IMG/VR virus record: IMGVR_UViG_3300027759_000001
Source: a virus
Lineage: Duplodnaviria > Caudoviricetes
DNA length: 64,000 nucleotides
Reading direction: 5' to 3' (one strand)
This document shows, piece after piece, positions 3,128 through 33,978 of the stretch (position 1 is the stretch's first letter; each line of letters begins with the position of its first letter). The position numbers were made by a program, and so were the translations under genes. Under the pieces are notes generated by a model. The model saw only the letters and a list, made by a program, of their open reading frames with translations, was not told the DNA's origin and searched no databases.

Positions 3128-3131
3128 TAAA

Positions 3132-3167
3132 AAACCCCATTTCTTAATAAGAGTGGGGTTTCTTTTT
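3132..3167. terminator. bidirectional terminator between convergent genes
   Basis: AAACCCCA...TGGGGTTT with A/T tracts; near-identical hairpin at 24786-24815. Confidence 0.8.
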
Positions 3168-7656: not shown

Positions 7657-7658
7657 AA

Positions 7659-7841
7659 ATGGGTTTTAACAAAAGATTTTTAAAGAAAGAGAACATCCTT
7701 AATCACCTTACAGATATTATGAATTATTTAGATGCCGACGCAGTGTTGTGTACGGATGAATTTTCACGCAATGTCTACAGGATGTTTAATGAGGGAAAAA
7801 ATGAGGAAGAAATAATAAAATACATAAATAAAAATAAATGA
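7659..7841 (+). CDS. hypothetical protein
   Basis: ORF with ATGA overlap to next gene. Confidence 0.75.
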   Translation: MGFNKRFLKKENILNHLTDIMNYLDADAVLCTDEFSRNVYRMFNEGKNEEEIIKYINKNK

Positions 7842-8956
7842 AAGTTAAGTTAGAATATGTGTGGATTGACGGATATACACCGGAGCCAAACCTTAGAAGT
7901 AAGATTAAAATTGTGGACTATGAGCAAATTAAAAATTGTTTAGTTCTAAATAATTTCCCTGAATGGAACTTTGATGGGTCATCAACATTACAAGCGGAAG
8001 GTAATAGTTCTGATTGTATTTTAATACCTGTTAGACATTATTTTTGTGATAATACAAACACAATTTACGTGTTGTGTGAAGTAATGAATTCTGATGGTAC
8101 ACCACACGAAACTAATACAAGATCAAAACTAATTGGAGATCAAGAAGATTTGTGGTTTGGGTTTGAACAAGAATATTTTATCTACGATAGAAATAACAAA
8201 TGTATTTTAGGACACAATGAAAACAACTTGGAACCACAAGGTAAATATTATTGTGGTGTTGGTGAATATGTTGCAGGAAGAGATTTTGTTGAGGAACATA
8301 TGGATATGTGTTTAAAATACGGAATTGATATTACAGGGATCAACGCTGAGGTTGCATTAGGTCAATGGGAATACCAAGTATTTTCAAAAGGTAAATTAAA
8401 GGCAGGTGATGATTTGTGGATGACCAGATACTTTTTATATAAAATCTCTGAAAAATATAATTATGGGATTGATCTACATCCAAAACCAATTCAAAAAGGG
8501 GAATGGAACGGGTCAGGACTTCATACAAATTTCTCCACAGATAAAATGAGAAATGATGGTAACGAAAAATATTTTATATCATTGTTTAATGCGTTTGAGG
8601 TAAGACATGAAGCCCATATTAAATCTTACGGGTCAGATAACAATCTTCGTTTAACTGGTAAATTTGAAACACAATCAATTGATAAATTTAGTTGGGGGGT
8701 TTCAGATCGTGGGGCATCAATTAGAGTTCCAAGAGATACTGCAAAAAATTGGAAAGGTTATGTTGAGGATAGAAGACCTGGATCAAATGCTGACCCATAC
8801 AAAATTATTAAAGAAATTGACATATCTTTAAATACTACCGATCAAATCTACGATGTTAAAATAATGATGAGTAAGGATTTTGATATGGAAGGTCTTAATG
8901 AAAAATACGGAACAATTTCAAATGATGAATTATTAAAAGAATATAGAGAAGAATAA
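7838..8956 (+). CDS. glnII: glutamine synthetase type II
   Basis: EYVWIDG, WNFDGSST, GFEQEY, NAEVALGQWEYQ, WNGSGLHTNFS, RLTGKFET, RGASIRVP, EDRRPGSNADPY. Confidence 0.95.
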   Translation: MKVKLEYVWIDGYTPEPNLRSKIKIVDYEQIKNCLVLNNFPEWNFDGSSTLQAEGNSSDCILIPVRHYFCDNTNTIYVLCEVMNSDGTPHETNTRSKLIGDQEDLWFGFEQEYFIYDRNNKCILGHNENNLEPQGKYYCGVGEYVAGRDFVEEHMDMCLKYGIDITGINAEVALGQWEYQVFSKGKLKAGDDLWMTRYFLYKISEKYNYGIDLHPKPIQKGEWNGSGLHTNFSTDKMRNDGNEKYFISLFNAFEVRHEAHIKSYGSDNNLRLTGKFETQSIDKFSWGVSDRGASIRVPRDTAKNWKGYVEDRRPGSNADPYKIIKEIDISLNTTDQIYDVKIMMSKDFDMEGLNEKYGTISNDELLKEYREE

Positions 8957-9222
8957 TGGAAAAAGAATGTGTATGTGGAGCTAACGTATTTTGTGAGTGC
9001 CCTCCAATAAAAGTAGAACAAGTTAATCATCCTAACCATTACGGAGGAGAGGATAATCCTTATGAAGCAATAAAAGTTATTGATGCTTGGGATTTAGGAT
9101 TTAGTTTAGGAAATACTGTAAAGTATATTTCAAGAGCTGGAAAAAAAGATAAAGAGTTACAGGACCTTAAGAAAGCATTATGGTACTTGCAACATCATAT
9201 AGAAACATTAGAGAAAAAATGA
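8956..9222 (+). CDS. DUF3310 family (T7 gp1.7-like nucleotide kinase)
   Basis: VNHPNHY...GFSLGNTVKYISRAGKK...DLKKALWYL. Confidence 0.9.
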   Translation: MEKECVCGANVFCECPPIKVEQVNHPNHYGGEDNPYEAIKVIDAWDLGFSLGNTVKYISRAGKKDKELQDLKKALWYLQHHIETLEKK

Positions 9223-10154
9223 AAATAGTAGTAACAGGAGGAGCGGGGTTTATAGGATCCGCATTTATAAATCACCTATTAGATAACTTTGAATGTGATG
9301 TTCTTTGTGTTGATAAACTAACATACGCTGGTCGTAGAATGAATATTAAACACAATGTTTCTTTTTTACAAAAAGACATTTGTGATGTAACGGAAGATGA
9401 ACTTGGTGATTTTGATTACATGGTTCACTTTGCTGCTGAGTCTCACGTTGATAATTCAATTAAGAATGGGTTACCATTTGTTAGAACTAATGTTGAAGGA
9501 ACATTTAATTTATTGGAGATATCAAGAAAAAATAAGAACCTTAAAAAATTCATACACATTTCAACTGATGAGGTATATGGTGATATGGATGAACACATTG
9601 CAATTAATCATACTGCAACTGAAGATGATAGTTTAAAATCTAGTTCCTATTATTCTGCAACTAAAGCGGCATCTGATATGTTAGTGTTATCTGCTAATAG
9701 AACTTATGGTTTACCATATATCATCACAAGAACTTGTAATAATTTTGGTGAACATCAGTTTGAGGAAAAATTCTTACCAACAATTGCAAGATCTATCGGT
9801 GAAGGTAAACCAATTCCAGTTTATGGTGACGGATTACAAGTTAGAGAATGGATGTATGTTTATGATAATGTAAAAGTCATTTGTGATTTAATGTTTGACG
9901 ATGAGATTGTAAATACCACTTATAATATTGGAACAACTTTCAGAGTGACAAATTTGGACATTATTAAAAATATTTCTTATATTTTAAACAAAGAGGTTGA
10001 TGTTAAATACGTTGAAGACAGATTAGGTCATGATAGGAAATATGGTCTTAATTGTACAAAATTAAGAGAATATTATATAACTAAAAATGGGGAGGTTCCT
10101 AAGTTTTTAAATTTGTTTGATTACTTAGATAGACAATATGGTGGTGAAAAATAA
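9219..10154 (+). CDS. rmlB: dTDP-glucose 4,6-dehydratase
   Basis: VTGGAGFIGS, HFAAESHVDNSI, ISTDEVYG, YSATKAASD, DRLGHDRKY; start moved to 9219. Confidence 0.95.
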   Translation: MKIVVTGGAGFIGSAFINHLLDNFECDVLCVDKLTYAGRRMNIKHNVSFLQKDICDVTEDELGDFDYMVHFAAESHVDNSIKNGLPFVRTNVEGTFNLLEISRKNKNLKKFIHISTDEVYGDMDEHIAINHTATEDDSLKSSSYYSATKAASDMLVLSANRTYGLPYIITRTCNNFGEHQFEEKFLPTIARSIGEGKPIPVYGDGLQVREWMYVYDNVKVICDLMFDDEIVNTTYNIGTTFRVTNLDIIKNISYILNKEVDVKYVEDRLGHDRKYGLNCTKLREYYITKNGEVPKFLNLFDYLDRQYGGEK

Positions 10155-10458
10155 AAAAGGTTTATCAAAAGAGATAAATGTGTTGGGAGCAATAACAACT
10201 CCCGGTGAACTTATTCGTGAAACCCTTATTAATTTTATGTGGGGATTTCTTGGAAATTCAATTGTAGTTTTTGTGTCAAAAGAACTGGACTTTTTGGTTT
10301 TAATCAACTACATTGCTTATTACATATTAATTTCTTATATTGTTAATAGGAAGAAATATGAAACTATGTTGGGTAAGTTTATTGTTTTACCGGGTTCGGC
10401 CGCAATAGGTGCCTTCACAGGATATAAACTAGCTCAAGCAATAACAAGTATAATTTAA
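10138..10458 (+). CDS. small multi-pass membrane protein
   Basis: Three hydrophobic segments. Confidence 0.7.
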   Translation: MVVKNKKGLSKEINVLGAITTPGELIRETLINFMWGFLGNSIVVFVSKELDFLVLINYIAYYILISYIVNRKKYETMLGKFIVLPGSAAIGAFTGYKLAQAITSII

Positions 10459-10464
10459 ATAAAA

Positions 10465-10671
10465 ATGAAACTAACAGAAGAACAAAAAAATCATATTCAG
10501 GATCAATATGATGCCTTAAAACAAACTGATAAAGAGTTTGAGGAAATACACGATATGATTGTTGAACATTGTGTGGATGAATACATTGTTGACTTATCAG
10601 ATGATGAGGATGGAGACCTTTACGAAGAGTTTTCAAATGAAGTATGGGATTATTTAGAAAGTATTAAATAA
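10465..10671 (+). CDS. acidic hypothetical protein
   Basis: ORF. Confidence 0.7.
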   Translation: MKLTEEQKNHIQDQYDALKQTDKEFEEIHDMIVEHCVDEYIVDLSDDEDGDLYEEFSNEVWDYLESIK

Positions 10672-10677
10672 AAAAAA

Positions 10678-11526
10678 ATGATAGAAACAGGAAAAATTAT
10701 AAGTGGAGATTGTATTGAAGTAATGAAAACATTACCTGAAGGATCTGTGGACTTAATTTGTACATCGCCTCCATATGGAGTCGGTATTGCTTATGATGTA
10801 CACGACGACGATGTTGAATTTGATGAGTATTTAGTATTTGCTAAGAACTGGTTAACTGAAGCGTATAACGTATTAAAAGATGATGGTCGTATTGCACTTA
10901 ACATTCCTTATGAGATTAACAGACAAAAAAAAGGTGGGAGAATTTTCTTTGTTTCTGAGATGTATCAGTTAATGAAACAAATTGGATTTGGATTCTTTGG
11001 TATCGTTGATCTTGAAGAACAATCACCACATAGATCTAAGACAACGGCATGGGGTTCTTGGATGAGTCCATCAAGTCCGTATATTTATAATCCAAAGGAG
11101 TGTGTAATATTAGCATACAAAAAACACCACATTAAAAAGGTTAAAGGAGAACCTCAGTGGAAAGGGACACCTACTGACATTGAACAGGAAGATGGGTCAT
11201 TAAAGAAAAAAATTGTATATGAGGAGAAGGATAAGAAAGAGTTTATGGAACTTGTGTTTGGTCAGTGGAATTACTTTGCAGATACTAAATCACTCACCAA
11301 GGCGACTTTCTCAATGGACATACCGACCAAGGCAATTAAGATACTATCCTACAAGAACGATGTAATATTAGATCCATTTGCTGGTTCAGGTACAACATTA
11401 GTAGCGGCTCAGATATTAGAACGTAGATGGTTAGGTATTGAGTTAAGTGAAAATTACAAACAAATTGCCGAAACAAGAATTAATTATTTCAAAGCTTTAG
11501 AACAAATAAAAGAACTCCCACTATAA
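10678..11526 (+). CDS. beta-class N4-cytosine/N6-adenine DNA methyltransferase (orphan)
   Basis: TSPPY precedes LDPFAGSGTT; no cognate REase nearby. Confidence 0.92.
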   Translation: MIETGKIISGDCIEVMKTLPEGSVDLICTSPPYGVGIAYDVHDDDVEFDEYLVFAKNWLTEAYNVLKDDGRIALNIPYEINRQKKGGRIFFVSEMYQLMKQIGFGFFGIVDLEEQSPHRSKTTAWGSWMSPSSPYIYNPKECVILAYKKHHIKKVKGEPQWKGTPTDIEQEDGSLKKKIVYEEKDKKEFMELVFGQWNYFADTKSLTKATFSMDIPTKAIKILSYKNDVILDPFAGSGTTLVAAQILERRWLGIELSENYKQIAETRINYFKALEQIKELPL

Positions 11527-11547
11527 TCAATGGGAGTTTTCCTTTTT
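11513..11547. terminator. terminator between convergent genes
   Basis: AACTCCCA...TGGGAGTT + T-rich tail. Confidence 0.75.
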
Positions 11548-11625
11548 ACGTAGTATTTATAACAAATTGTTTAATATGGAAGATGAATATGACAACGTAT
11601 GGGGTGATCACGTTATATGTCAATT

Positions 11626-12177
11626 TTAATTTATTGAAATCCATTTATTTTTAAAGTTATGATTACTTGAGCAATATCTTGCGTAATCATTAACCAATGG
11701 TCTTCCTGTGTTATAACATCCACATACGATAGTCCAGTCTTTGTATAACGTATATAATCTATTAAGTAATTTCATACTTGTTTCAACATTCAACTCAATA
11801 TCGTTGGTTAATCTTTTTTTGGTGTAATTAACTTTATTAATGTAGTCAGATGTTGCTGGCATAATTTGCATTGGGCCAACCGCTCCGGCAAATGATTCTT
11901 GATACGGGTTATAATTCCAATGGAAAGGACCTAAGTATCTTGTCTCCATATAGGCCACATTGTACGCAATATACTTTGGTATATGATATTGATCACTATA
12001 CTTTTCAATCAGTTCGTACATTCTTATTGATGTTGGTGATTGAACATTTGAATGATAGTTTGATTCTGTGAAGATAGAATCATTTGAGGTTTTCACATTT
12101 GACATTATTCCAAAAAATATGAATACCCCAAGACATAAACCAAGATAAGTTATTTTTGTTAATTTAAGGATATTCAT
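11626..12177 (-). CDS. SLT-type lytic transglycosylase with N-terminal membrane anchor
   Basis: METRY, GAVGPMQIMPAT, CYNTG; hydrophobic N-terminus. Confidence 0.88.
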   Translation of the reverse strand: MNILKLTKITYLGLCLGVFIFFGIMSNVKTSNDSIFTESNYHSNVQSPTSIRMYELIEKYSDQYHIPKYIAYNVAYMETRYLGPFHWNYNPYQESFAGAVGPMQIMPATSDYINKVNYTKKRLTNDIELNVETSMKLLNRLYTLYKDWTIVCGCYNTGRPLVNDYARYCSSNHNFKNKWISIN

Positions 12178-12183
12178 GGTTTT

Positions 12184-12501
12184 TTATTTTGATTTGTTAA
12201 TATAAATGTTATTAGCGTAAAGTTTAAAGATTGATACGCCAATTGAATCTTGGTAAACGGTATAATCACCTGTGGTTTTATCAATCACAATTAGATGATT
12301 ATTTTCATCTATTGCTAAATTAACTTGAGACCTATTAACTTTAATCATTTGAATGGTTGGTTTCTTAGGACCGTATTGTTGGTTATATAAATAACCTACC
12401 GAGAATCCTCCCAGTAAGGATGCCACTACAAAAATTACAACACCCATAGATTTAAATGTTGATTTCTTTGTTTCTAAAAAATTTGCGATTTTTTCTTTCA
12501 T
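12184..12501 (-). CDS. single-pass membrane protein, possibly lysis-associated
   Basis: N-terminal TM, co-oriented with the SLT gene. Confidence 0.65.
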   Translation of the reverse strand: MKEKIANFLETKKSTFKSMGVVIFVVASLLGGFSVGYLYNQQYGPKKPTIQMIKVNRSQVNLAIDENNHLIVIDKTTGDYTVYQDSIGVSIFKLYANNIYINKSK

Positions 12502-12586
12502 AATATATATTTTTAATTGGTTTAAGCTAATTTACATAAAAACATTGGATTTGCAAACTTTTTTTTGTTGAAAACTATTTATAACT

Positions 12587-14143
12587 ATGAAGAAAAAGTT
12601 AATAACGGAATCGGGAATAAGAAACATCAGGGAATTATCTAAAAGATACCCTGAGGCTAAGATATATTTTCACCAAGATTTAGATGGTGTAACCACTGCT
12701 TTAGGTATGAAAAATTACTTAGAACAAAATGGAATCAAAGTTGTTGACTCTGAGATTATTCAATATGGTGATAAGGAATTCGCAATTAAGAAGTTGGATG
12801 CTGAGGGTGATGTTATGCCGGTGTTAGTTGACTTTGCTCATGGTAAACCAATGTTTATTATACACACTGACCACCACGATACACAAGCGGGAGTTGAACA
12901 AGGTACCTCAACTAATTTTAAATCTTCAAGATCTAACGTTGAGACAATATCCCAAACCGTATCTCCAAGAGATATTTTCCCATCTGACGATATCACTTTG
13001 ATATCTACGGTTGACTCAGCAAATTATGCTCAATATGATATTAGTCCTGAACAAGTAATGAACTATTTGTTTAAGGTAGATAAAGATCAATCACTACAAA
13101 AAAACAAAATGATAATGGGTATGGTTGCTAATAAATTATTATTGGCATTTAAAAACAAACCAGGGTTCTTGGAAAATATTGTAATGAATGCAAATCCATC
13201 GTTATTAAGTATATTGTTAAACATCAGATCTCAGATCAAAGAAAAAAGTTATGCTGATGTTGGAGATTTAGAAAAAAACAAAGAGAGTTATGTTCAAACA
13301 ATGAAAACTCACAAAAATGTTAAAGTTGATGATAAAATTATAGTTCAGTATGGTGGGGGTAGTATGATGAAACCAGGATCATATGATAGATACACACCAT
13401 TCAGAAATAATCCTGATGCAGACTTCTTGGTGATTGCTTGGCCGTTAGGGTTGGTACAAGCGTCTTGTAATCCATTTAAGAAAGAAAGAGCACTTAAAGG
13501 TGTAAACTTAGGTGAGATCAAAGATGATGTCTTAAACAAGTGGAAATCACAATTACAAGATAAGGACATTTCATTATCTACAATAAAATGGATATCAGAA
13601 TCAGGAAAAGGTTTTGGTGAACAATCAGTTGGTTTTACATTCAGAGATTTTAACGCCTTATATGGTAAAGAATTTAAACAAATGGCCGATGGGGAAGATA
13701 TCCTTGGTGATGTTGAAGTGGCAATGAAAAAACCATTCAGTGATTTAACAGATAAAGAAATGAGAATGTTAGATTCTATTAGTGTAAACGCTTGGGATCT
13801 AATTCAATCCAATAGTGGTGGACACAAATGTATTACAAATATTTCTGGGTTGTCATACTTAGGTAGATCTAAAAGACCACCTAAGGGTAAATACAAATAT
13901 AATGAAGAGTCAGAGGATTCTCCTTATATTAAATTTACTAAGATGGTACAGAATGAATTTGTTAGAGTTTTAAAAGCAAAAATTGATGAAGACGGTGGTG
14001 ATAGATATGAGCCGAATTTTGAGGTTGAAATGACGGAACACTCAAGGTCATTAAGTAACGCTAGAAAACAAGGACAAGGATTAAGATTTCCAAAGTCGGC
14101 AGTAAAATCAAATCAAATGAGATTTAGACCAAATAATAGATAA
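12587..14143 (+). CDS. DHH/DHHA1-family phosphoesterase with leader and basic C-terminal tail
   Basis: HQDLDG, VDFAH, TDHHD, VDSAN, SGGHK. Confidence 0.8.
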   Translation: MKKKLITESGIRNIRELSKRYPEAKIYFHQDLDGVTTALGMKNYLEQNGIKVVDSEIIQYGDKEFAIKKLDAEGDVMPVLVDFAHGKPMFIIHTDHHDTQAGVEQGTSTNFKSSRSNVETISQTVSPRDIFPSDDITLISTVDSANYAQYDISPEQVMNYLFKVDKDQSLQKNKMIMGMVANKLLLAFKNKPGFLENIVMNANPSLLSILLNIRSQIKEKSYADVGDLEKNKESYVQTMKTHKNVKVDDKIIVQYGGGSMMKPGSYDRYTPFRNNPDADFLVIAWPLGLVQASCNPFKKERALKGVNLGEIKDDVLNKWKSQLQDKDISLSTIKWISESGKGFGEQSVGFTFRDFNALYGKEFKQMADGEDILGDVEVAMKKPFSDLTDKEMRMLDSISVNAWDLIQSNSGGHKCITNISGLSYLGRSKRPPKGKYKYNEESEDSPYIKFTKMVQNEFVRVLKAKIDEDGGDRYEPNFEVEMTEHSRSLSNARKQGQGLRFPKSAVKSNQMRFRPNNR

Positions 14144-14145
14144 TA

Positions 14146-14493
14146 TTAATCTTGTAATAATATAGTATCACCTTCGGCAATATCATATTTTGTACAAGAA
14201 CCACCTTTGAGTTCTAATATCATATCACCATTACCAGTATAACGATCACACTCAGGTGTTTTACATGGTTTACAATTATTATGTATTTTGGTAATTTTAT
14301 TCCCATTAATGAAAATTATATCCAAAGAGATAATACAATTCTTCATCCAAAAGGAATGGTCACCTTCCTTCATTATGAATAACATACCATCAAACGTTTT
14401 GTCAAATTTTTTACCCATCATACCTTTTTGTATGTCTTTAGTGGTCATCACACATTTGACATTGAATAAATTATTATTTACTATTAACTCCAT
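14146..14493 (-). CDS. DUF192-family protein
   Basis: KGMMG...GMLFI...FWMKNCIISLDIIFI...ILEL. Confidence 0.9.
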   Translation of the reverse strand: MELIVNNNLFNVKCVMTTKDIQKGMMGKKFDKTFDGMLFIMKEGDHSFWMKNCIISLDIIFINGNKITKIHNNCKPCKTPECDRYTGNGDMILELKGGSCTKYDIAEGDTILLQD

Positions 14494-14516
14494 ATAGTTA
14501 TAAATATATTCTTATT

Positions 14517-14927
14517 ATGAAATCAAATAGAAGTTCAGGTGTAATATTAAAATTTGGTGATAAAGTTTTATTATGTAAACGTGCTGACCACGAAACTTAT
14601 GCCGGAGAATGGTTTATTCCAACAGGACATTTAGAAAAAAATGAAACACCAAAAGATTGTGCTTATCGTGAATTTTATGAGGAAACAAACATTAAGATTG
14701 ATCAGGATATAAGTTTGGTTGGATTCATAACAAAGAAAAATAAAAAAGGAGAACCAAAGGGTTTAATTTATGTGTATTTATATGAATCTGATAAAAAAAA
14801 GATGCCAAACTTGGATAAGGCAGAAGATGGTCACGAACATTCAGATTGTGGGTTTTTTACGTTAGAAGACCTTCCTGTAGAAAAAAATGAGGAGTTATAT
14901 AAGATTTTAACAAAAATTTTATCTTAA
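14517..14927 (+). CDS. NUDIX hydrolase
   Basis: GHLEKNETPKDCAYREFYEETNI. Confidence 0.92.
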   Translation: MKSNRSSGVILKFGDKVLLCKRADHETYAGEWFIPTGHLEKNETPKDCAYREFYEETNIKIDQDISLVGFITKKNKKGEPKGLIYVYLYESDKKKMPNLDKAEDGHEHSDCGFFTLEDLPVEKNEELYKILTKILS

Positions 14928-15111
14928 AAGTAAAAATTCATTGACTTTTACTAAATTAAACTATATTTATATTACACAAAAACAGCCAATACCCTTCCTT
15001 TCTACGAATTAATTGGTTTATCAATATTAATCCCATATTTTTTGAGAAAAAACTATGGGATTTTTTATGCCGTGTCAATTTTATTTGTATATTTGTAGAA
15101 ATAAAAAACAT

Positions 15112-15303
15112 ATGAGCTCAATTCCTTTATACATTGTTGTTAATAGTCACTTAAGTGATTCACTTATTGAAATTGGTTTTAACCCTGAATTAGCGAGTAA
15201 AAGAATTCGTTTTGTGAAGGTGTTAACGAATATGTTCTCTGATCTTAGTCAGAGAATTGAAGAGGATGAATTAAATCGTATTTGGAAAGAAAAAATTATA
15301 TAA
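15112..15303 (+). CDS. hypothetical protein
   Basis: Start placed after promoter at 15088. Confidence 0.7.
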   Translation: MSSIPLYIVVNSHLSDSLIEIGFNPELASKRIRFVKVLTNMFSDLSQRIEEDELNRIWKEKII

Positions 15304-15305
15304 CT

Positions 15306-15638
15306 ATGGGAACTTACATACACACATTCAAGAAAAAATTTAACAAGAAAGTAACAATTGATGGTAATCCTGTTGTTGTTGGACAAGCAACATTTTTATG
15401 TCGTCAAGATTGGTCAGGTAATTACTCACCATCTGAAAGTAGAGAAATGACAAGAGCTTACGCTTTGACTGAAAATGATCAACCTGAATACATTACATTT
15501 GATGGTGAGATGGTTTATAAAAATAATAAAAAAGGTGTATGGTCAGACGGATCTGGTTTTTGGGGTGGTATTGACCACAAAAATGATTTTGTTGGTACAC
15601 TAAAAAAAGTGGGTAGAAAATTTGTTATTGTCAAATAA
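15306..15638 (+). CDS. hypothetical protein
   Basis: ORF. Confidence 0.7.
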   Translation: MGTYIHTFKKKFNKKVTIDGNPVVVGQATFLCRQDWSGNYSPSESREMTRAYALTENDQPEYITFDGEMVYKNNKKGVWSDGSGFWGGIDHKNDFVGTLKKVGRKFVIVK

Positions 15639-15655
15639 TTTAGTATCTTTGTTAT

Positions 15656-15931
15656 ATGAATAAAATGGGTTTCAACATAAAAGTAGTTAGTGATAAGTTC
15701 GGTGATTTAATCAACGAGACATTCATGGATCAGACACAATTCAAAATCTTTTTGAAGATGGTGCACGGAGCATTGGTATTAGAAGAAGACTTAAGTTTCT
15801 TCAATGGAGATACATTCTTGGTTCACATCCCAAGTAAAGTATTGAAAGACTCTGTTATTTTTACAAACGTTAGACAAGTTTCTTTAACTGAACAAGTTAA
15901 AAGTAAAATTGAGGCGTTGGTAACAATATAA
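15656..15931 (+). CDS. hypothetical protein
   Basis: ORF after promoter 15644. Confidence 0.75.
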   Translation: MNKMGFNIKVVSDKFGDLINETFMDQTQFKIFLKMVHGALVLEEDLSFFNGDTFLVHIPSKVLKDSVIFTNVRQVSLTEQVKSKIEALVTI

Positions 15932-20930: not shown

Positions 20931-22049
20931 ATGGAAAATAATAATAGTGTATGTTATGTTGGTTTGATCGGTGAGATTATACCAATAGAAGGTGCGGATA
21001 ACATTGAACTTGCATTGGTTGGTGGTTGGCAAGCCATCACCAAGAAAGGTGAATACCAAGTTGGTGATATGGTTGTCGTTGCAACCACTGATGCGGTTAT
21101 ACCACAAAAACTTTCTGATGACTTAGGTGTTACAAGTTATCTTCGTAAAGGTCAGAGAGTAAGAACTATAAAACTTCGTAAGGTTTATTCTGAATGTTTA
21201 ATAATACCAATAGGGTTTGTTCCGGAAAAATATAGATATGATGGTTCTGACTGCATGGAGTTACTTGAAGTGTTTAAATACGAACCACCAGTTAAGATGG
21301 TTCAGTTAAGTGGAGGTAGAAAATTTAAATACCACCAAAACCCTAACTTTCATGTTTACTACAAGTTTCCTAACTTAAAGAACGCACCTGAAATGTTTAA
21401 CGAGGAAGACATAGTTACTGTTACTCGTAAACTTCACGGAACAAATGCTCGTTATGGAATTGTTAGAAAGAAAAGATTTTCAATATTTGATAGAGTTAAA
21501 AAATTGTTTGGGGTTCAATGGGTAGGATATGAATACGTTTACGGATCTCATAATGTAGAAAAAGGTTCTGACTCTCAAGGGTTTTATGAAACTGATGTAT
21601 GGAGAGACACTTCTGAAAATTATCAAATCAAAGAAAAACTTTGGAAGTTTGTAAAAACATTTGGGTCTGAGGAATTTTTGGGTGATGGGTTAATCATCTA
21701 TGGTGAGATATATGGTCATGGGATCCAAAAAAATTACAATTACGGACTTGAAGATATAAAGTTTGCTGGTTTTGATATTGAATTAAATGGTAAATACTTA
21801 CCACACCACGATGAAAAAAACATCTTTGAAGGTTTGGACTTACCAAGAGTTGAAGTTCTTTATATGGGTCCATGGTCTAAAGATGAGCAAGACAAACACG
21901 TATTTAACAACATGATTAAAGGAACCAAAGTTCCACACGAAGGTGTTGTTGTTAAATCTGTTACTGGTGATAGACATAAAGTTGGTAAAGTTATCAATCC
22001 TGACTACTTGATCTATGGTGAAAAAAATAACGTAGGTGACTCCCATTAA
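20931..22049 (+). CDS. RNA ligase, DRB0094-like family
   Basis: N-terminal OB-like IEGADNIE; motif I TRKLHGTN; IYGEIYG, FAGFDI, HEGVVVK, KVINPDYL. Confidence 0.88.
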   Translation: MENNNSVCYVGLIGEIIPIEGADNIELALVGGWQAITKKGEYQVGDMVVVATTDAVIPQKLSDDLGVTSYLRKGQRVRTIKLRKVYSECLIIPIGFVPEKYRYDGSDCMELLEVFKYEPPVKMVQLSGGRKFKYHQNPNFHVYYKFPNLKNAPEMFNEEDIVTVTRKLHGTNARYGIVRKKRFSIFDRVKKLFGVQWVGYEYVYGSHNVEKGSDSQGFYETDVWRDTSENYQIKEKLWKFVKTFGSEEFLGDGLIIYGEIYGHGIQKNYNYGLEDIKFAGFDIELNGKYLPHHDEKNIFEGLDLPRVEVLYMGPWSKDEQDKHVFNNMIKGTKVPHEGVVVKSVTGDRHKVGKVINPDYLIYGEKNNVGDSH

Positions 22050-23628: not shown

Positions 23629-24768
23629 ATGGAAGATAAAAAAATTATTATTGAAGAATTAAGTAGGATTAAAAATCTTATGGTTTATGATAGATCTAAA
23701 ACATTAAATGAAAATATTAATGAAGGTTTGTTTGACACTTCGGATGGTAAGATAGCGAGATGGTTATTACCTTCAGGTGATATCATTACCGGAGATAAAA
23801 TAAAAGGGATGATACCTACAGGGGCGGAACAGTTAAATGCTAAAAATGCGGAAAAAGCGATTGATATTGCTAGTGGGTTGAAAACCGCTTCCTCTCTTTT
23901 TGGTGGTGGAGGAGCAACTGCTGCGGCAACAGGTGCTGCTGAGGTTGGAGCTGGTGCCCTTGAGGTTGGAGGCATTACGTATAGTGCTGGTGCGGTTGGT
24001 GCTGGTGCGGTTGGTGCTGGTGCGGTTGGTGCTGAGGGTGCTGCAGCGGCTACTTTTTTAGGTTTAGGACCTGTTGGTTGGATAGTAATCGGTGTTGCAG
24101 GTCTTGCGGCTTTAGGTTATTGGGCGGCAACAAAGGATGATAAAATGGGTATGATTGAAAATTTATTTGGAATTTGTAAATCAAGTAAAGAAAAGGATAA
24201 GTGGAAAAGATATATGAGTGATGAGGAGGTTAGAAAAAATTCAGGTATATTATACCATGCTATGGAAGGTTGGGGTACAGATGAGGATGCAATTTATAAT
24301 GTATTTAAATTGTTTAAAAGTCCTGGTGATTTTTGTGCGGTAAGTGAAAAATATGAAAGTACATTTGACGAATCATTATTAGATGCTTTAGATGGTGACT
24401 TTGATTATGGTTGGGAACCAATTGCAAAATCTTTAGTTGATATGACTAAAAACTATGCTCAAACTGAGGCTGAAGATTATTGTAAAAATAACGTTAAAGA
24501 ATGTGCGGACAAATTAAAATTGTATTGTGAAAAAACGCCTGACGATCCTAAATGTAAAGTTTTGAAAACTAATGTTGTTGACTTTAAAAATTGTAATGGT
24601 GAATACTATAAAGGATGTAAGGGACCAAAAATAGTACAAATACAAAAATGTTTAGGTTTAACTGCCGATGGTAAATTTGGTGAAGAAACAGAAAAAGCGT
24701 TGGAGGAGAAAACAAAAAGTAAAACATTCAAAGACGTAGATGTTAAAACAATATGTGATAAAAAATAA
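23629..24768 (+). CDS. leader + Gly/Ala zipper TM + annexin-like repeat + PG-binding-like domain
   Basis: LYHAMEGWGTDEDAIYNVF; IVQIQKCLGLTADGKFGEETEKAL. Confidence 0.85.
   Translation: MEDKKIIIEELSRIKNLMVYDRSKTLNENINEGLFDTSDGKIARWLLPSGDIITGDKIKGMIPTGAEQLNAKNAEKAIDIASGLKTASSLFGGGGATAAATGAAEVGAGALEVGGITYSAGAVGAGAVGAGAVGAEGAAAATFLGLGPVGWIVIGVAGLAALGYWAATKDDKMGMIENLFGICKSSKEKDKWKRYMSDEEVRKNSGILYHAMEGWGTDEDAIYNVFKLFKSPGDFCAVSEKYESTFDESLLDALDGDFDYGWEPIAKSLVDMTKNYAQTEAEDYCKNNVKECADKLKLYCEKTPDDPKCKVLKTNVVDFKNCNGEYYKGCKGPKIVQIQKCLGLTADGKFGEETEKALEEKTKSKTFKDVDVKTICDKK
23986..24030 (+). repeat. 3 x 15-bp tandem repeat (AGAVG)
   Basis: GCTGGTGCGGTTGGT x3. Confidence 0.95.
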
Positions 24769-25219: not shown

Positions 25220-25804
25220 ATGAAAGTAATATTTTTAGATAACGATGGTGTAATTTGTCTATCCAATAATTGGGGTGGACGAACAAAGAAATGGTCAAAA
25301 TACCGAAGTGCAAATCCTGATTTAAGTGGTGAAAAAAAAGATGCTCCGGTATCTGTACGATTTGATGACTTTGATAAAAAGGCAATTAAAATCCTTAATG
25401 AGATACTTGAAGAAACGGGATGTGAAATTGTTGTAAGTTCTGATTGGAAATTACATGCAACTCTTGAAGAACTTGGTGACTATTACGAGAGTCAGGGGAT
25501 CATCAAACGACCAATTGCTTTGACGCCAAACATACAAAATTGTACGGTTCATGGTAATGTTTTTATATGGTCACGACAATGGGATTTAGAACAAGTCCGA
25601 ACTATTGAAATTAGACAATATCTACACGATCATCCTGAGGTTACACATTGGGTTTCTGTTGATGATTTGAATATGGGTAAAATTGGTGAACCTTGGAAAG
25701 ATGTTTGGGCAATTGACAATTTTGTTTTAACTCCAAAATCAAATGAGGGGATTAAACAATTAAGTATTAAAGAAAAGATATTAAATTTTTTAAAAGATGA
25801 CTAA
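25220..25804 (+). CDS. HAD-family phosphatase (HAD_SAK_2, RNA-repair type)
   Basis: IFLDNDGV, IVVSSDW, WVSVDD. Confidence 0.85.
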   Translation: MKVIFLDNDGVICLSNNWGGRTKKWSKYRSANPDLSGEKKDAPVSVRFDDFDKKAIKILNEILEETGCEIVVSSDWKLHATLEELGDYYESQGIIKRPIALTPNIQNCTVHGNVFIWSRQWDLEQVRTIEIRQYLHDHPEVTHWVSVDDLNMGKIGEPWKDVWAIDNFVLTPKSNEGIKQLSIKEKILNFLKDD

Positions 25805-27973: not shown

Positions 27974-28014
27974 TATTTGTATATTTGTAAAATATTATAT
28001 AAATAAACACAACA

Positions 28015-28623
28015 ATGATTGATAACATAGAAATTATAAAAACTTTATTGAATTTTTCTGAACAAGGAGATTTCTATATGTTGTATGTATTCAAACGTAA
28101 GAAAGATCAACCTGAAGGTGAGAGAGACAATCACCAATCTGTAAGGACTATTAAAACTTATTGTATTGAATCTATTGACCATTTGGAACGTAGATATGAT
28201 GAGATCAAACAACTATGTGAGATGTTTAAGGCGAGGGCGTATATTCACGTACAAAAACAAAATCATAAGGATGTTTCGTTAAATATGTTATCGTCACTTG
28301 CTGAACGTATCAGGGATGGTGTATCCAACCAGAAAGGGTTGTTTGATTCTGTTGTTGGGCAAATTAAAACTCAAGAGAAGATATGGATTGTTGACATTGA
28401 CACTAAGGATATTCAAGAATTAAGAAATGTTCAAGTGACTATTAATGGATGTAAACCTGAAGGACCTAAAACTAAATACGTTATTCCAACTAAAAATGGA
28501 TTCCATTTAATAACCGATAAGTTTGATGTTTTAGAATTTAAGAAACAATATCCTGAGATTGATATTCAAAAGAAGAACCCAACATTATTATATTTACCAA
28601 ACAGTTTAGAAGATGGATTATAA
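28015..28623 (+). CDS. AEP (prim-pol)-like fold protein
   Basis: RAYI, WIVDID, IPTKNGFHLIT, NPTLLY. Confidence 0.6.
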   Translation: MIDNIEIIKTLLNFSEQGDFYMLYVFKRKKDQPEGERDNHQSVRTIKTYCIESIDHLERRYDEIKQLCEMFKARAYIHVQKQNHKDVSLNMLSSLAERIRDGVSNQKGLFDSVVGQIKTQEKIWIVDIDTKDIQELRNVQVTINGCKPEGPKTKYVIPTKNGFHLITDKFDVLEFKKQYPEIDIQKKNPTLLYLPNSLEDGL

Positions 28624-29683
28624 GGAATTAAAACGAAAAGAATTTTTATTTGAGATTATTAATGATACCATTGATGGTATGGATATATATAATCATAATG
28701 AATCTCTTTGGTTAATTAAAACTGAAGAATCAAAATGGGCAATTGAATTTACCAAAGATAAAACATTGTGGTATAACTACAATTTATTTAAAAATTTATT
28801 TAAGGCAATTTCTTTAGATATTTCGGAAAATCAAAAATATGTAACTGAATGGTTTGAGTCAAGATTTTTGAATATGTCAAAGGTTAAAGATTGTTGTGAT
28901 CCATTTTTTGATCAAGATAAATATGTTGAAGAAACAATTCAAAGTGGGGTGAAGATTAGCGTATTTGATGATTTTGAAGAGATCCAATCTGTTAAAGACA
29001 CCATTCAAAATGGGGTTAAACAAACCGATTTTTCCATCCGATTGAATAATACTAGTATTGAAGATACCATTCAAAATGGTGTGAGACACACCGGATATGC
29101 GGGCGTTCGTATTCCATCAAAAGTTGAAGATGCTATTCAAAATGGGGTGAAACACACCCATGCGCAACGGTTCCATGAGTTCGTTGGAGTTGAAGATACC
29201 ATTCAAAATGGGGTGAAACACACCAAAGCCGATCTTGGTATTCAATCAATTATGCTTGAAGACACAATTCAAAATGGGGTGAAAGAAACCAAATTAAAAA
29301 GTGGTAAACAAACTGGTAAAGTTGAGGACACAATTCAAAATGGTGTTAAACATACCGAAGATGGTGATTGGTTAGATGGTGATGAAAGAATAGGAGATAT
29401 TATTCAAGAAGGTGTAAAGGAGACTATTCCCACACTACGACGTACTCTTCTTGGGGTTGATGATATTGTTCAAAATGGTGTTAAAGAAACCCATGAAGAT
29501 ACGTATCACCATAAAGGTAGAATCGGTGGTGTGATTAAAAAATTTATAACGATGATTAATAAAATGTTTTATCGGTTTAACAAATGGTTTGAAATAAACT
29601 TAGGTTGGTTCTTTGTTAATGGTAGGAAACAAGAAGTTTGGCATAAATACTTAAAAAAAAAATATAAAAATGGAGATAGATAA
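28613..29683 (+). CDS. protein with 9 interspaced VEDTIQNGVKHT repeats and variable 10-aa loops
   Basis: 356-aa ORF reading through the array without stops. Confidence 0.9.
   Translation: MDYKELKRKEFLFEIINDTIDGMDIYNHNESLWLIKTEESKWAIEFTKDKTLWYNYNLFKNLFKAISLDISENQKYVTEWFESRFLNMSKVKDCCDPFFDQDKYVEETIQSGVKISVFDDFEEIQSVKDTIQNGVKQTDFSIRLNNTSIEDTIQNGVRHTGYAGVRIPSKVEDAIQNGVKHTHAQRFHEFVGVEDTIQNGVKHTKADLGIQSIMLEDTIQNGVKETKLKSGKQTGKVEDTIQNGVKHTEDGDWLDGDERIGDIIQEGVKETIPTLRRTLLGVDDIVQNGVKETHEDTYHHKGRIGGVIKKFITMINKMFYRFNKWFEINLGWFFVNGRKQEVWHKYLKKKYKNGDR
28895..29521 (-). CRISPR. CRISPR-like (class 2 geometry) degenerate array embedded in a CDS; no cas genes in window
   Basis: 36-nt repeats, unique 30-nt spacers (one 33), internal palindrome ACCATT-CAA-AATGGT, GTTG/CA(C/A)C ends; strand inferred from similarity to VI-B/II-A repeats. 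Confidence 0.45.
28925..29491 (+). repeat. interspaced 36-nt repeats, 66-nt period
   Basis: Repeat starts 28925, 28991, 29057, 29123, 29189, 29255, 29321, 29390, 29456; consensus GTTGAAGATACCATTCAAAATGGGGTGAAACACACC. Confidence 0.97.
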
Positions 29684-30253: not shown

Positions 30254-30664
30254 ATGACAAAAGTTAGAATTTATTTAGATGATGTTCGTACACCAGTAGA
30301 CCCAAGTTGGGTTGTTGTTCGTTCTTACGATGAGTTTGTTCAAAAGATAAACTCAATTGGGATGGAGAACATTGAATTGATATCGTTAGATCACGACTTA
30401 GGTGATACTGCAATGAGAGAATGGCATTATGGTGTTGTAAAAAACTATACAATCAATTACGATAACATCACAGAAAAAACTGGTATGGATTGTACCAAAT
30501 GGTTGGTTAACCAATGGTTGGATGGTAAACCTGTTGTGGAAGTTGTGGTTCACTCTGCAAATGCCGTTGGTAGTGGTAATATGATGGGATATATCAACAA
30601 TTACAGACACTTAAGTAGATTGCCTCAGAATTGTGTAAGAGTACAAATAGAACATACAGTATAA
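30254..30664 (+). CDS. cyclic-phosphate-processing receiver-domain protein
   Basis: IYLDDVR, ISLDHDLG, TGMDCTKWL, VHSANAVG. Confidence 0.82.
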   Translation: MTKVRIYLDDVRTPVDPSWVVVRSYDEFVQKINSIGMENIELISLDHDLGDTAMREWHYGVVKNYTINYDNITEKTGMDCTKWLVNQWLDGKPVVEVVVHSANAVGSGNMMGYINNYRHLSRLPQNCVRVQIEHTV

Positions 30665-30813
30665 TGATGACGGACGAAGAAAAGGATAATAGAATAAAAG
30701 AACTTGAGGAATTTCTTGAAGATGTTATTGAACATCCTTATATGTGTGGGTCCTCAATATGGGAAGAAGGTCGTAAATTACTAAACAAAGAAGAAGGTGA
30801 ACAAATTAGATAA
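30664..30813 (+). CDS. hypothetical protein
   Basis: Short ORF. Confidence 0.55.
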   Translation: MMTDEEKDNRIKELEEFLEDVIEHPYMCGSSIWEEGRKLLNKEEGEQIR

Positions 30814-31933
30814 ACAATACCAAGATTTACTCCAAACTATTTTAGATTACGGAGTTGAAAAACAGGATAGAACAGGTACAGGAACCAAAAGTATTTTTGG
30901 TTATACTATTCGTCATAATATGCAAGATGGGTTTCCAGTTCTTACAACTAAGAAAATGGCTTGGAAAACTATGGTGACCGAGTTGTTATGGTTCTTGAGT
31001 GGTGATACAAACATCAAGTTCCTTGTTGATAACAATTGTCATATTTGGGATGGTGATGCTTATAAGAACTATTGTAAAATTGTAGGGTCTATTGAAGAAC
31101 CTGATTATAGTGTTCATGTTGATGACCCTAACCAAAATTGTACTAGGTTAATGACTATGGAAGAGTTCATCGACAAAATCAAGACAGATGATGAGTTTGC
31201 TAAGAAGTGGGGTGACCTCGGACCTGTGTATGGCAAGCAATGGAGAGATTGGGGAAGTAAAAAAAGATATGGTGACTATGAACCTCCAATGTATGGTGGT
31301 ATAGACCAAATCCAAAATCTAATCAATGACCTTAAGAACAATCCAGACTCAAGACGATTAATGGTTAATGCTTGGAATGTCGGAGAATTAGACCAAATGG
31401 TTCTTCCACCTTGTCATTATGGATTTCAAGTTTATACAAGAGAGTTGAGTGCTAGTGAAAGAATCACGTATAAAAACACTAAACAAATTAATTTATTGGA
31501 TTCAAATGAACTGTTTGATTTTATAAAAAGTAATGTTAGTATAGATTTAGATAATGAGGTTCATAAAGAATGTGACAAATTTAATATTCCAACCAGAGCA
31601 ATCTCTTTAATGTGGAATCAACGTTCAGTAGATACATTCTTAGGTTTACCATTTAATATCGCATCTTATGGGTTATTACTCACAATTTTGGCAAAAGAAG
31701 TTGACATGATTCCTGACCAATTGATTGGAAATTTAGGTGATACTCACTTATACTTAAATCATATTGAACAAGCGAAAGAACAGATCGGTAGAGAACCATT
31801 TCAATTACCAACACTAAATCAGTTCCCAACCTATGAAGGTTCAAGACCAAGTATTGAATCTTATGTGGTAGGTGATTTTACCCTTAAAGATTATCAATCA
31901 CACGAAACAATTAAAGCACTTTTATCAAATTAA
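30797..31933 (+). CDS. thyA: thymidylate synthase (with insertions)
   Basis: DRTGTGT, FPVLTTKK, GPVYGKQWR, PDSRR, LPPCH, NQRSVDTFLGLPFNIASY, DTHLYLNH; GTG start. Confidence 0.96.
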   Translation: MNKLDKQYQDLLQTILDYGVEKQDRTGTGTKSIFGYTIRHNMQDGFPVLTTKKMAWKTMVTELLWFLSGDTNIKFLVDNNCHIWDGDAYKNYCKIVGSIEEPDYSVHVDDPNQNCTRLMTMEEFIDKIKTDDEFAKKWGDLGPVYGKQWRDWGSKKRYGDYEPPMYGGIDQIQNLINDLKNNPDSRRLMVNAWNVGELDQMVLPPCHYGFQVYTRELSASERITYKNTKQINLLDSNELFDFIKSNVSIDLDNEVHKECDKFNIPTRAISLMWNQRSVDTFLGLPFNIASYGLLLTILAKEVDMIPDQLIGNLGDTHLYLNHIEQAKEQIGREPFQLPTLNQFPTYEGSRPSIESYVVGDFTLKDYQSHETIKALLSN

Positions 31934-33285: not shown

Positions 33286-33978
33286 ATGAAATTAACTATC
33301 ATATCAGACACTCACGGAAAACACAAACACGTACACCACGATTTACCTGGTGGCGATTTGTTGTTACACGCAGGTGACATCAGTTCTATGGGTTACGAAC
33401 ACGAGATCACTCAGTTTGCGGGTTGGTATGACAAAATCGTAACCTACGATCACAAAGTATTTATTGCGGGTAATCACGATTGGGGATTCCAAAACAATGT
33501 TGAGAAAGTAAAAGGTATCTTGACAGGTTACAAAACTATTGAATATATCCAAGATGAGTTAATGACCATCCAAGATGGTGATGGACCTGAGATTAAAATT
33601 TGGGGATCTCCTTGGCAACCTGAGTTCTACAATTGGGCATTTAACTTACCAAAAAATGGTGAAGAGTTGAAAGCAAAATGGGATATGATTCCTGAAGGAA
33701 TTGATATCTTAATTACTCACGGACCGGCTTGGGGAATATTAGATGATGTTGAAGGTAACCGCAATGTTCATTTGGGTTGTGAATTACTTGCTGAGAAAAT
33801 CAAACAAATCAAACCTAAAATCCACATCTGTGGTCACATCCATACAGGACACGGACATTACTTTGATGGTCACACACATTACTTCAATGCGTCTGTATTG
33901 AACGAGCAATATCTTTATTCTAAGTCACCTTGGAATATTGATTGGGATCCTATAACTAATGAAATTAATTTTTTATAA
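33286..33978 (+). CDS. metallophosphoesterase (MPPED-like)
   Basis: ISDTHG, HAGD, IAGNHD, ITHGP, CGHIH. Confidence 0.92.
   Translation: MKLTIISDTHGKHKHVHHDLPGGDLLLHAGDISSMGYEHEITQFAGWYDKIVTYDHKVFIAGNHDWGFQNNVEKVKGILTGYKTIEYIQDELMTIQDGDGPEIKIWGSPWQPEFYNWAFNLPKNGEELKAKWDMIPEGIDILITHGPAWGILDDVEGNRNVHLGCELLAEKIKQIKPKIHICGHIHTGHGHYFDGHTHYFNASVLNEQYLYSKSPWNIDWDPITNEINFL

Follow-up and report, generated by a model that had tools for sequence, protein, structure and literature searches.

Type VI-B CRISPR arrays are defined by 36-nt direct repeats and ~30-nt spacers (Smargon et al., bioRxiv 10.1101/092577). CRISPR mini-arrays and single repeat units borne by viruses have been reviewed (PMC11656645). 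Spurious 'proteins' translated from CRISPR arrays are known (PMC7673337), as are CRISPR-like false positives in tandem-repeat genes (PMC5294841). In the literature, no report was found of a CRISPR array recruited as protein-coding sequence, and the related work concerns mistaken translation (PMC7673337).

The array gene studied here lies in a 64-kb window, which is the whole stretch of phage DNA that was analysed. Like VI-B arrays, it has a 36-nt repeat, a 30-nt insert and a 66-nt unit, its inserts are mutually unrelated, and units are gained and lost collinearly. The antisense strand of the core also matches VI-B repeats in register at 22–25 of 36 positions, including the AUUUUGAA-GGUA-CAAC half. 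Unlike VI-B arrays, which are non-coding and whose transcripts are processed to 66-nt crRNAs, the gene is translated, its repeats are only 56–94% identical, every insert is a multiple of 3 in length, conservation extends to both array ends, the antisense core has a GGUG 5' end, the repeat fold is lost, and there is no cas13b within the window. Virus-borne mini-arrays of the same repeat family occur in the same phage group and are a plausible source of the coding array, although they are non-coding, have 1–10 spacers and near-identical repeats, and in some cases lie beside a TnpB/Cas12f-like gene. The gene product resembles the spurious CRISPR proteins and false positives in being a spaced-repeat protein that matches geometry-based CRISPR finders. 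In contrast to these, purifying selection acts on its reading frame, which adjoins conserved folded domains and persists in thousands of phages.

Cassette-type repeat proteins, which include the ~20-aa beta-hairpin repeats of choline-binding proteins and clostridial toxin CROPs as well as recombination-driven variable surface proteins, offer another comparison. Like the array gene, these proteins are built of short hairpin units that vary in copy number, with conserved segments between which recombination occurs. They differ in that here whole 10-aa loops are unrelated and the cores are conserved at synonymous sites, and the structural match is weak.

Organisation of the array gene

The product of the gene is a three-part protein, with a ~100-aa N-domain, nine 22-aa units and a helical tail. 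The 66-nt array is the coding sequence for the middle of this expressed phage protein, and each unit consists of a 12-aa core (VEDTIQNGVKHT) and a ~10-aa cassette. The features are as follows.

28015..28623, +, upstream gene, 202 aa, phrog_14949; adjoins the array gene in conserved synteny in most relatives
28613..29683, +, cassette-array protein ORF P0001, 356 aa; from the ORF list, more than 2,320 homologues and conserved synteny; overlaps the 3' end of the upstream gene by 11 nt
28613..28924, +, N-terminal alpha/beta domain, aa 1-104; family-wide conservation and AF2 model
28925..28960, +, core 1, VEETIQSGVKIS, degenerate; copy search and core mapping
28961..28990, +, cassette 1, VFDDFEEIQS; common to close relatives
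28991..29026, +, core 2, VKDTIQNGVKQT; copy search, R2 profile match on the - strand
29027..29056, +, cassette 2, DFSIRLNNTS; core mapping and comparison of relatives
29057..29092, +, core 3, IEDTIQNGVRHT; copy search, R2 E=0.017 on the - strand
29093..29122, +, cassette 3, GYAGVRIPSK; nucleotide-identical in L004
29123..29158, +, core 4, VEDAIQNGVKHT; copy search and R2 profile search
29159..29188, +, cassette 4, HAQRFHEFVG, 53% GC; nucleotide-identical in L004
29189..29224, +, core 5, VEDTIQNGVKHT, same as the family consensus and, of all copies, the one most like the repeat; 25/36 to Flavobacterium VI-B repeats, R2 E=0.0025
29225..29254, +, cassette 5, KADLGIQSIM; unique so far among the compared relatives
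29255..29290, +, core 6, LEDTIQNGVKET; copy search and core mapping
29291..29320, +, cassette 6, KLKSGKQTGK; core mapping and comparison of relatives
29321..29356, +, core 7, VEDTIQNGVKHT, differs from core 5 at six synonymous sites; core mapping
29357..29389, +, cassette 7, EDGDWLDGDER, 33 nt; kept in 88/151 relatives, in both clades
29390..29425, +, core 8, IGDIIQEGVKET, degenerate; copy search and core mapping
29426..29455, +, cassette 8, IPTLRRTLLG; conserved among relatives
29456..29491, +, core 9, VDDIVQNGVKET; copy search and core mapping
29492..29521, +, cassette 9, HEDTYHHKGR; conserved among relatives
29522..29683, +, tenth-core remnant (IGGVIK...) followed by the C-terminal tail; two helices predicted in the tail, which is unlike that of relatives

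The nine 36-nt cores thus span 28925–29491 with a period of 66 nt (once 69 nt). A copy search returned nine copies over 28924–29496, with start-to-start distances of 66, 66, 66, 66, 66, 66, 69 and 66 nt, and TRF reported the central 2.6 copies only. Seven of the cassettes between cores are 30 nt and one is 33 nt long. The 36/30 geometry of the original prediction, with its 66-nt period and single 33-nt insert, was therefore recovered by both copy search and core mapping, and the predicted consensus GTTGAAGATACCATTCAAAATGGGGTGAAACACACC holds both for this gene and across the family. The array is stop-free and in frame within the ORF, as had been stated.

Pairwise identity among the nine cores is 56–94% (mean 77%). 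Identity to the copy at 29123 is, in order, 64, 76, 74, 100, 90, 74, 76, 62 and 76%, a series that bears out the claim that the central copies are best conserved and that conservation decays toward both ends. The core alignment likewise confirmed that the copies at 29321 and 29189 differ at 6 sites, all synonymous, and the GGT variants contain the ACCATT-CAA-AATGGT palindrome. The GC-rich inserts that had been noted correspond to three cassettes with 47–53% GC in a window of ~30% GC. Differences between cores fall mostly at third codon positions (75, 54 and 175 at positions 1, 2 and 3, respectively), which indicates selection at the protein level. Cassette lengths are multiples of 3 without exception, and arrays of the family run up to 27 units without any stop.

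The protein family

More than 2,300 homologous lake-phage proteins share one plan: a conserved N-domain is followed by 3–27 units, each made of VEDTIQNGVKHT and a ~10-aa cassette, and the terminal units are conserved. This VEDTIQNGVKxT cassette-array family is very large, unnamed and confined to Bacteroidota-type lake phages. P0001 is a member, with an N-domain that carries the EFTKDKTLWYNYN and WFESRFL motifs and is followed by the 22-aa units. Many alleles of the family occur within single lake samples. In L004 the flanking genes are 95–100% identical to those of the window and the array gene itself 66%, and the nearest phage record (G001) has no homologue of the array gene. The locus is present in RNA libraries, as contigs, which carry neither strand nor processing information.

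The N-domain has invariant columns in alignments A1 and A2, and AF2 gave a confident fold with pLDDT of 87–94 for residues 1–80. Searches of Pfam and PDB with this domain gave no match; its look-alikes in the Atlas are stand-alone viral proteins of ~100 aa, all unnamed, with TM of 0.70–0.79. The core was modelled with low confidence as a putative beta-hairpin with an NG turn, and a fold search with the repeat region gave only weak beta-solenoid-like matches (Z at most 7.3). Pfam, PHROGs and Rfam yielded nothing useful for the array gene, and tblastn against cultured phages gave weak tape-measure noise only.

A distant subfamily, L192 (core VEEVLNNKVSTT), has the same 12+10-aa layout, with cores that match VI-B repeats at only 11–18 of 36 positions. 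Hence, the protein layout could predate any capture. Degenerate members of the family are also far less repeat-like.

Relationship of the cores to type VI-B repeats

The antisense core was compared with five real VI-B repeats located beside cas13b (NF038190), from F. columnare (L111), Flavobacterium sp. J27 (L092) and loci L137–L139; the F. columnare repeat was taken from genomes. The 22–25 in-register matches approach those of the real repeats among themselves (24–29/36), and the alignment shows agreement at 17 of the 19 columns invariant among four aligned repeats. The closest genomic repeats belong to Flavobacterium, the host genus of the nearest cultured relative of the phage. As judged by our own reading of the sequences, only a single antisense frame runs through the Flavobacterium repeats without a stop, and this is the one in which the gene is read.

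A sequence profile built from four real VI-B repeats (R2) ranked cores first (E 0.0025) and second (E 0.017) in the 64-kb window. In ten loci totalling 93 kb and four whole phage records totalling 512 kb, its only matches were true arrays and family cores. The scores are moderate (12–16 bits per core) and the E-values roughly calibrated. In a codon-shuffle control, the synonymous codons leaned toward the repeat with P = 9e-5 for the four repeats and P = 1.9e-4 for the three found only through cas13b, whereas the reversed-profile control gave no signal (P 0.95). The resemblance of the cores to CRISPR repeats, as seen in the sequence comparisons, thus exceeds chance, and the reverse complement of the core is, as originally proposed, a statistically recognisable relative of Cas13b-type repeats from Flavobacterium and other Bacteroidota, with similarity above shuffled-codon controls.

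A conserved stretch of 21 nt in the core is complementary at 19 positions to the most conserved half of the repeat. The synonymous sites of codons 1, 2, 5, 6 and 7 and the rare codons ACC, GGG, GTG and CAC are fixed in two clades that have no variable cassette in common and whose N-domains are saturated at synonymous sites. Among 401 sampled Flavobacterium genomes, cas13b was present in 3. Single pattern matches in Flavobacteriaceae genomes proved to lie in unrelated proteins.

Variation of the cassettes

Exactly 30 nt is the length of 133 of 152 cassettes (87%) and of 86% of real spacers. Pairs of cassettes are either at least 80% identical or no closer than random sequence, without intermediates, and no shifted or inverted copies were found among them. 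Whole units are gained or lost among relatives in collinear order. The proposed comparison of related ORFs therefore revealed turnover of inserts: entire units come and go and the cassettes are variable, with the terminal units conserved. Most likely, the alleles diverged as recombination between cores added, removed or replaced whole 66-nt units.

The GC content of the cassettes is 0.386, as compared with 0.40 for stop-free real spacers, and GC3 falls from 0.40 in real spacers through 0.32 in rare and 0.26 in common cassettes to 0.22 in phage genes. The cassettes also show the GC1>GC2>GC3 gradient typical of coding sequence, which counts against capture.

Spacer matches, which the original prediction would have led one to seek, did not appear. 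Cassettes matched the window, flanks of relatives, 401 Flavobacteriaceae genomes, cultured phages and 120 real spacers at chance level only, the best outside match (20/21 nt) lying within an unrelated ORF. In the reverse direction, spacers of host and phage arrays gave no match to the window.

CRISPR arrays in related phages

Relatives of the phage carry genuine arrays of the VI-B-like repeat type. L156, which shares six genes in the same order with window positions 6868–15931, has three canonical repeats. The L173 repeat is the best match to the core (28/36) and has the same ACACC end. In L188, a TnpB/Cas12f-like gene and a mini-array lie ~1.5 kb upstream of a family gene. The mini-arrays on L156, L173, L183 and L188 have their repeat family and phage group in common with the array gene. 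Mini-arrays have stops in all frames, and the repeats of the real arrays found here are 93–100% identical. The mini-arrays near family genes are oriented opposite to the coding cores, so that an inversion would have to accompany capture. The region of the window that is syntenic with L156 has no mini-array and lacks the conserved flank motif. A search of the phage contigs that bear arrays gave no cas13b, and four phage records with family genes gave no TnpB-like gene; most of these sequences are fragments, and the negatives carry little weight. VIPR systems, with GGYNN repeats, are unrelated.

Origin of the array gene

A phage-borne CRISPR array was probably exapted into coding sequence. This is the best-supported origin given the translation, the VI-B geometry, the kinship of the repeats and the real arrays in relatives; since the repeats read backward resemble those of Cas13b systems and of the relatives' mini-arrays, a captured array probably became the cassette protein. 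The source would have been an array carried by a phage, with 30-nt spacers between 36-nt repeats of type VI-B-like sequence, and read on the antisense strand in the sole frame open through the repeat. Fusion of the array to an N-domain gene would have turned the repeats into the constant core and the spacers into peptide cassettes. We infer both a capture event and its direction, and the product may serve as a scaffold that presents variable loops in a conflict between phage and host or between phages. Moderate similarity, a repeat fold that was not kept, cassettes with no matching source and the rarity of cas13b were counted against capture. The best-supported part of the original prediction is a captured array translated with variable loops; a functioning decoy and live extension are not supported.

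It is rather unlikely that the gene encodes an ordinary protein tandem repeat, with a 22-aa hairpin unit and a free loop, whose 36+30 geometry arose by chance. The likeness to Cas13b repeats would then be a coincidence helped by AT-rich composition, and the fixed synonymous sites would result from recombination or gene conversion between cores or from a local mRNA hairpin. Such an origin agrees with the clear protein-level selection on the cores, the conserved terminal units, the L192 layout with cores unlike VI-B repeats, the loss of the VI-B fold, the coding-like GC gradient and the cassettes without matches in the window, relatives, Flavobacteriaceae genomes, cultured phages or spacers. It is harder to reconcile with a profile of independent repeats that places cores at the top of the window and elsewhere finds only true arrays and family cores, with synonymous codons biased toward the VI-B repeat (P about 1e-4), or with an in-register match whose closest genomic counterparts are in Flavobacterium, the host genus of the nearest cultured relative. 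Real arrays in relatives, one with a repeat matching the core at 28/36, and the bimodal cassette identities also argue against it.

The array does not work as a CRISPR array today, and a live array, extended by host Cas1-Cas2 in 66-nt steps or mis-called as an ORF, is close to refuted and highly improbable. It would account for the 36/30 geometry and for gain and loss of whole units, and spurious CRISPR-derived proteins do exist in databases (PMC7673337). However, the cores are far from the near-identity of real repeats, and 9–27 stop-free units with cassettes all in multiples of 3 lie between conserved N- and C-terminal regions of the protein. Conservation is highest in the units at the C-terminal end of the gene, where a leader would lie, and no protospacer was found in the searched sequences; the suggested ongoing extension by Cas1-Cas2 is not supported. 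The window has no cas gene, as predicted, with no ORF of Cas13b or Cas9 size (the largest is 717 aa) and no TnpB-like match. The suggested functioning array or antisense crRNA decoy fared no better: a covariance model with the VI-B repeat fold (R1) scored the cores at noise level (9.8–11 bits, E 4–9), and the Rfam CRISPR-DR families, which may not include VI-B repeats, did not match them. The antisense 5' end is GGUG, in place of the GUUG that in VI-B repeats is complementary to the CAAC-3' end, and the L173 repeat, the closest host or phage repeat, falls short of the near-identity of an RNA anti-CRISPR. Also improbable is a dual-use locus, encoding the protein and also a nucleic acid that acts on CRISPR machinery. 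As an RNA anti-CRISPR, antisense RNA could mimic the repeat and so decoy host Cas13b or the TnpB/Cas12f-like effectors of rival phages, or the many-copy mRNA could pair with the 3' half of repeats in pre-crRNA. Viral single repeat units as RNA anti-CRISPRs are already a known idea (PMC11656645), and the synonymous sites and rare codons fixed in two clades, the 19/21 complementarity and the presence of the locus in RNA libraries are in line with it. Against it are the loss of the repeat fold and the 5' GUUG end, RNA-library contigs that can show neither strand nor processing, the rarity of Cas13b in likely hosts and hairpin models without covariation. Two such models for the core were rejected, the pair counts being unsupportive.

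Exaptation of a captured array may also have left a living hybrid, although this is doubtful: a protein and a nucleic-acid player in CRISPR conflicts, in which selection on the nucleotide sequence would maintain the DR-like core. Its antisense or sense RNA might interfere with Cas13b or with TnpB/Cas12f-like effectors of rival phages. Alternatively, real phage or host arrays might still donate spacers by recombination in the shared repeat segment, and CRISPR spacers would be continuously turned into peptide cassettes.

If true, the exaptation of a captured array would represent a new route of gene birth, from non-coding immune memory to a modular protein, would link CRISPR biology to hypervariable phage proteins and could explain hundreds of unrelated 10-residue cassettes in a phage protein. 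On a cautious reading too, the genes form an abundant, unnamed and fast-rearranging family of lake jumbo-phage proteins. The same phage group also has VI-B-type mini-arrays, as well as compact TnpB/Cas12f-like genes accompanied by arrays; both are candidate players in warfare between phages and potential small genome editors. Any geometry-based CRISPR finder will report the genes of this family as arrays.

Organisation of the array gene

A 36-nt core occurs nine times at window 28924-29496, with start-to-start steps of 66, 66, 66, 66, 66, 66, 69 and 66 nt, and the array lies in frame within a 356-aa ORF at 28613-29683 (+). The cores all encode variants of VEDTIQNGVKHT. The inserts (cassettes) that follow cores 1-6 and 8 measure 30 nt, as does the stretch after core 9, taken as cassette 9; cassette 7 is longer, at 33 nt. 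Tandem Repeats Finder detected the central 2.6 copies only, because the inserts are unrelated. Pairwise core identity is 56-94% (mean 77%), with 75, 54 and 175 differences at codon positions 1, 2 and 3, respectively. The testable descriptive claims that the original prediction had made about the array were all borne out, and the copies at 29189 and 29321 differ at six sites, every one synonymous. No CRISPR family in Rfam matched the array. As had also been predicted, cas genes are absent from the window, in which no ORF reaches the size of Cas13b or Cas9; nor was any TnpB-like match found in it. The array is a translated gene rather than a guide-RNA array, and its product is almost certainly a cassette-array protein.

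The array protein has more than 2,320 metagenome homologues and no Pfam domain. Family members share a conserved N-domain of ~100 aa followed by 3-27 units of core plus cassette, mostly of 22 aa, the last units being conserved. AlphaFold predicted the N-domain with pLDDT ~90, and no match to it was found among solved structures; the units were modelled at low confidence as hairpins (strand VEDTIQ, turn NG, strand VKHT). A putative role of the protein is that of a loop-display scaffold in conflict.

The window belongs to the genome of a lake jumbo phage, the closest cultured phage being Flavobacterium phage vB_FspM_immuto. The gene is present in 65 viral contigs with conserved synteny. In one relative (L004) the array gene is 66% identical, as compared with 95-100% for the flanking genes. 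An RNA-repair set (the first three features below) surrounds the array gene, and two further genes lie near it:

20931-22049, RNA ligase (PHA02142 OB domain)
25220-25804, HAD_SAK_2
30254-30664, cREC_REC
30797-31933, ThyA
33286-33978, metallophosphoesterase

The locus is present in RNA libraries, whose contigs do not reveal strand or processing; they agree with the window at every position of 28000-28979 and 29118-29371. The C-terminal tail of the window allele (29522-29683), KKFITMINKMFYRFNKWFEINLGWFF..., stands in place of the relatives' common tail NGVKEVQPLPAQDGNMDWGNYY...; the two are unalignable in nucleotides and keep a W..NG..YL pattern. Some phages (L038, L040-L043, L048) carry two tandem family paralogues, short then long. 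A 379-aa ORF at window 23629-24768 matched an Annexin repeat at borderline level (25.9 bits, cut-off 25) and, weakly, a tape-measure PHROG.

Variation of the cassettes

The cassettes behave like spacers. Those common to several phages have the same nucleotides and unrelated neighbouring cassettes, and between the arrays of relatives whole units are gained or lost in collinear order. Identity of cassette pairs is bimodal: a pair reaches 80% or more, or stays at the random level. Pairwise comparison revealed no shifted or inverted relatives. Among 387 loop clusters in 152 proteins, 229 were met once; 133 of the 152 distinct DNA cassettes are exactly 30 nt. As compared with the phage proteome, cassettes are enriched in Arg, Ser and His, which is expected from translated random sequence of the same base composition; a GC1>GC2>GC3 gradient is nonetheless seen in them.

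Lake metagenomes contain numerous alternative 30-36-nt inserts on the same cores within a single sample. At window 29155-29231, contigs of these metagenomes cover the consensus core 10-30 times as deeply as its flanks; therefore, many different alleles coexist in one sample.

Comparison of the cores with type VI-B repeats

The F. columnare VI-B repeat, used as a pattern against 185,579 species genomes, gave arrays confined to three Flavobacterium species, each with cas13b, and further VI-B repeats were obtained by an independent search for Cas13b. The antisense core agrees with five real repeats, in register, at 22-25 of 36 positions; the real repeats agree among themselves at 24-29, apart from one close pair at 33/36. 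At the invariant columns of four aligned repeats the core agrees at 17/19.

Under a fold-aware covariance model of real VI-B repeats the cores did not stand out (E 4-9), and the repeat fold is therefore lost. With the four-repeat sequence-only profile, cores took the first two places among all matches across the window (E 0.0025 and 0.017) and made up four of the top six. The same profile, run against 93 kb from ten loci and 512 kb from four phage records, recovered only genuine arrays and family cores, scoring 14-32 and 12-15.7 bits, respectively.

The codon-shuffle control that the original prediction had called for, with the peptide fixed and the codon usage of the phage, gave P = 9e-5 for an equally repeat-like recoding, and P = 1.9e-4 with three repeats discovered solely via cas13b. 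The core scored 21.9 in this test, as compared with 13.6 for the highest window background; the reversed profile gave no signal (P 0.95) and the sense orientation scored only 5.2. The rare codons ACC, GGG, GTG and CAC predominate in the cores of two clades that have no variable cassette in common and whose N-domain synonymous sites are saturated. Flavobacterium repeats, as read from their sequences, have one antisense frame alone open throughout, VVDT[LF]QNKGF[PH]N, and this is the frame used by the array gene. A true evolutionary kinship of the cores with VI-B-type repeats is likely.

Arrays in related phages and origin of the gene

Viral contigs were scanned by a repeat-type pattern which the coding core does not fit, and many 66-nt non-coding arrays were found, including that of one phage contig, L156:

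L156, 3841-4008, mini-array of three canonical VI-B repeats (32 bits) and two spacers, cas-less

This phage has six genes in common with window 6868-15931, in the same order; no target was found for its spacers. The flank GGTATTTGGTGAGTGGAA is conserved between L156 and L183. Two contigs, L183 and L173, have single genes in common with the window, and their arrays directly follow a TnpB/Cas12f-like gene; the L173 repeat matches the core at 28/36, with the ACACC end common to both. Contigs L188, L191 and L146 each have a degenerate family member with a mini-array of 3-4 repeats ~1.5 kb upstream of it, and on L188 and L191 a TnpB-like gene is located just upstream of the mini-array on the same strand.

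Real spacers (n=120) are 30 nt in 86% of cases and open in the antisense frame in 53%, and real arrays include up to 8 open units in a run. The GC content of stop-free real spacers is 0.40, as compared with 0.386 for cassettes. GC3 is highest in real spacers (0.40) and falls through rare (0.32) and common (0.26) cassettes to phage genes (0.22), the trend to be expected of gradual amelioration.

The array had been interpreted as a captured CRISPR array, exapted into a repeat protein and/or still working. A working array is highly improbable, and this part of the interpretation was abandoned; the full exaptation scenario was retained and is somewhat favoured. Several findings count against capture. 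Core-repeat likeness is moderate, Cas13b is rare in the sampled genomes (3/401 in the phylum, 3/401 in the genus), and the mini-arrays near family genes run opposite to the coding cores. No source of any cassette was found in searches of cultured phages, the window, relatives' flanks, 120 real spacers and 401 Flavobacteriaceae genomes. Degenerate family members are less repeat-like, and a distant subfamily with a homologous N-domain, 22-aa units and core VEEVLNNKVSTT (L192; G1187, 2887-3408, minus strand) retains the 12+10 layout and bears little resemblance to the repeats. L192 and the L183 mini-array are on one contig.

Compact TnpB/Cas12f-like genes and Flavobacterium loci

Phage contigs of 29-362 kb carry genes for TnpB/Cas12f-like proteins of 428-443 aa (PF07282 + PF01385), each followed on the same strand by a 36/30 mini-array of 3-10 VI-B-like repeats:

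L183:2464-4214, TnpB/Cas12f-like gene and mini-array
L173:7809-10006, TnpB/Cas12f-like gene and mini-array
L188:7158-8938, TnpB/Cas12f-like gene and mini-array
L141, L182, L185, L191, L163, further contigs with both

This combination is a candidate phage-encoded miniature RNA-guided system.

Among bacterial VI-B loci, F. columnare ATCC 23463 and strain J27 have an intact cas13b, and in Flavobacterium covae (G004, L113-L118) stop codons divide the array-adjacent cas13b into several frames. In Flavobacterium sp. J27 the VI-B array (L092:4733-6263) contains both 36-nt repeats and long ones of 88 nt, in which the repeat halves are parted by a conserved insert, and which resemble the long repeats of Smargon et al. 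(bioRxiv 10.1101/092577).
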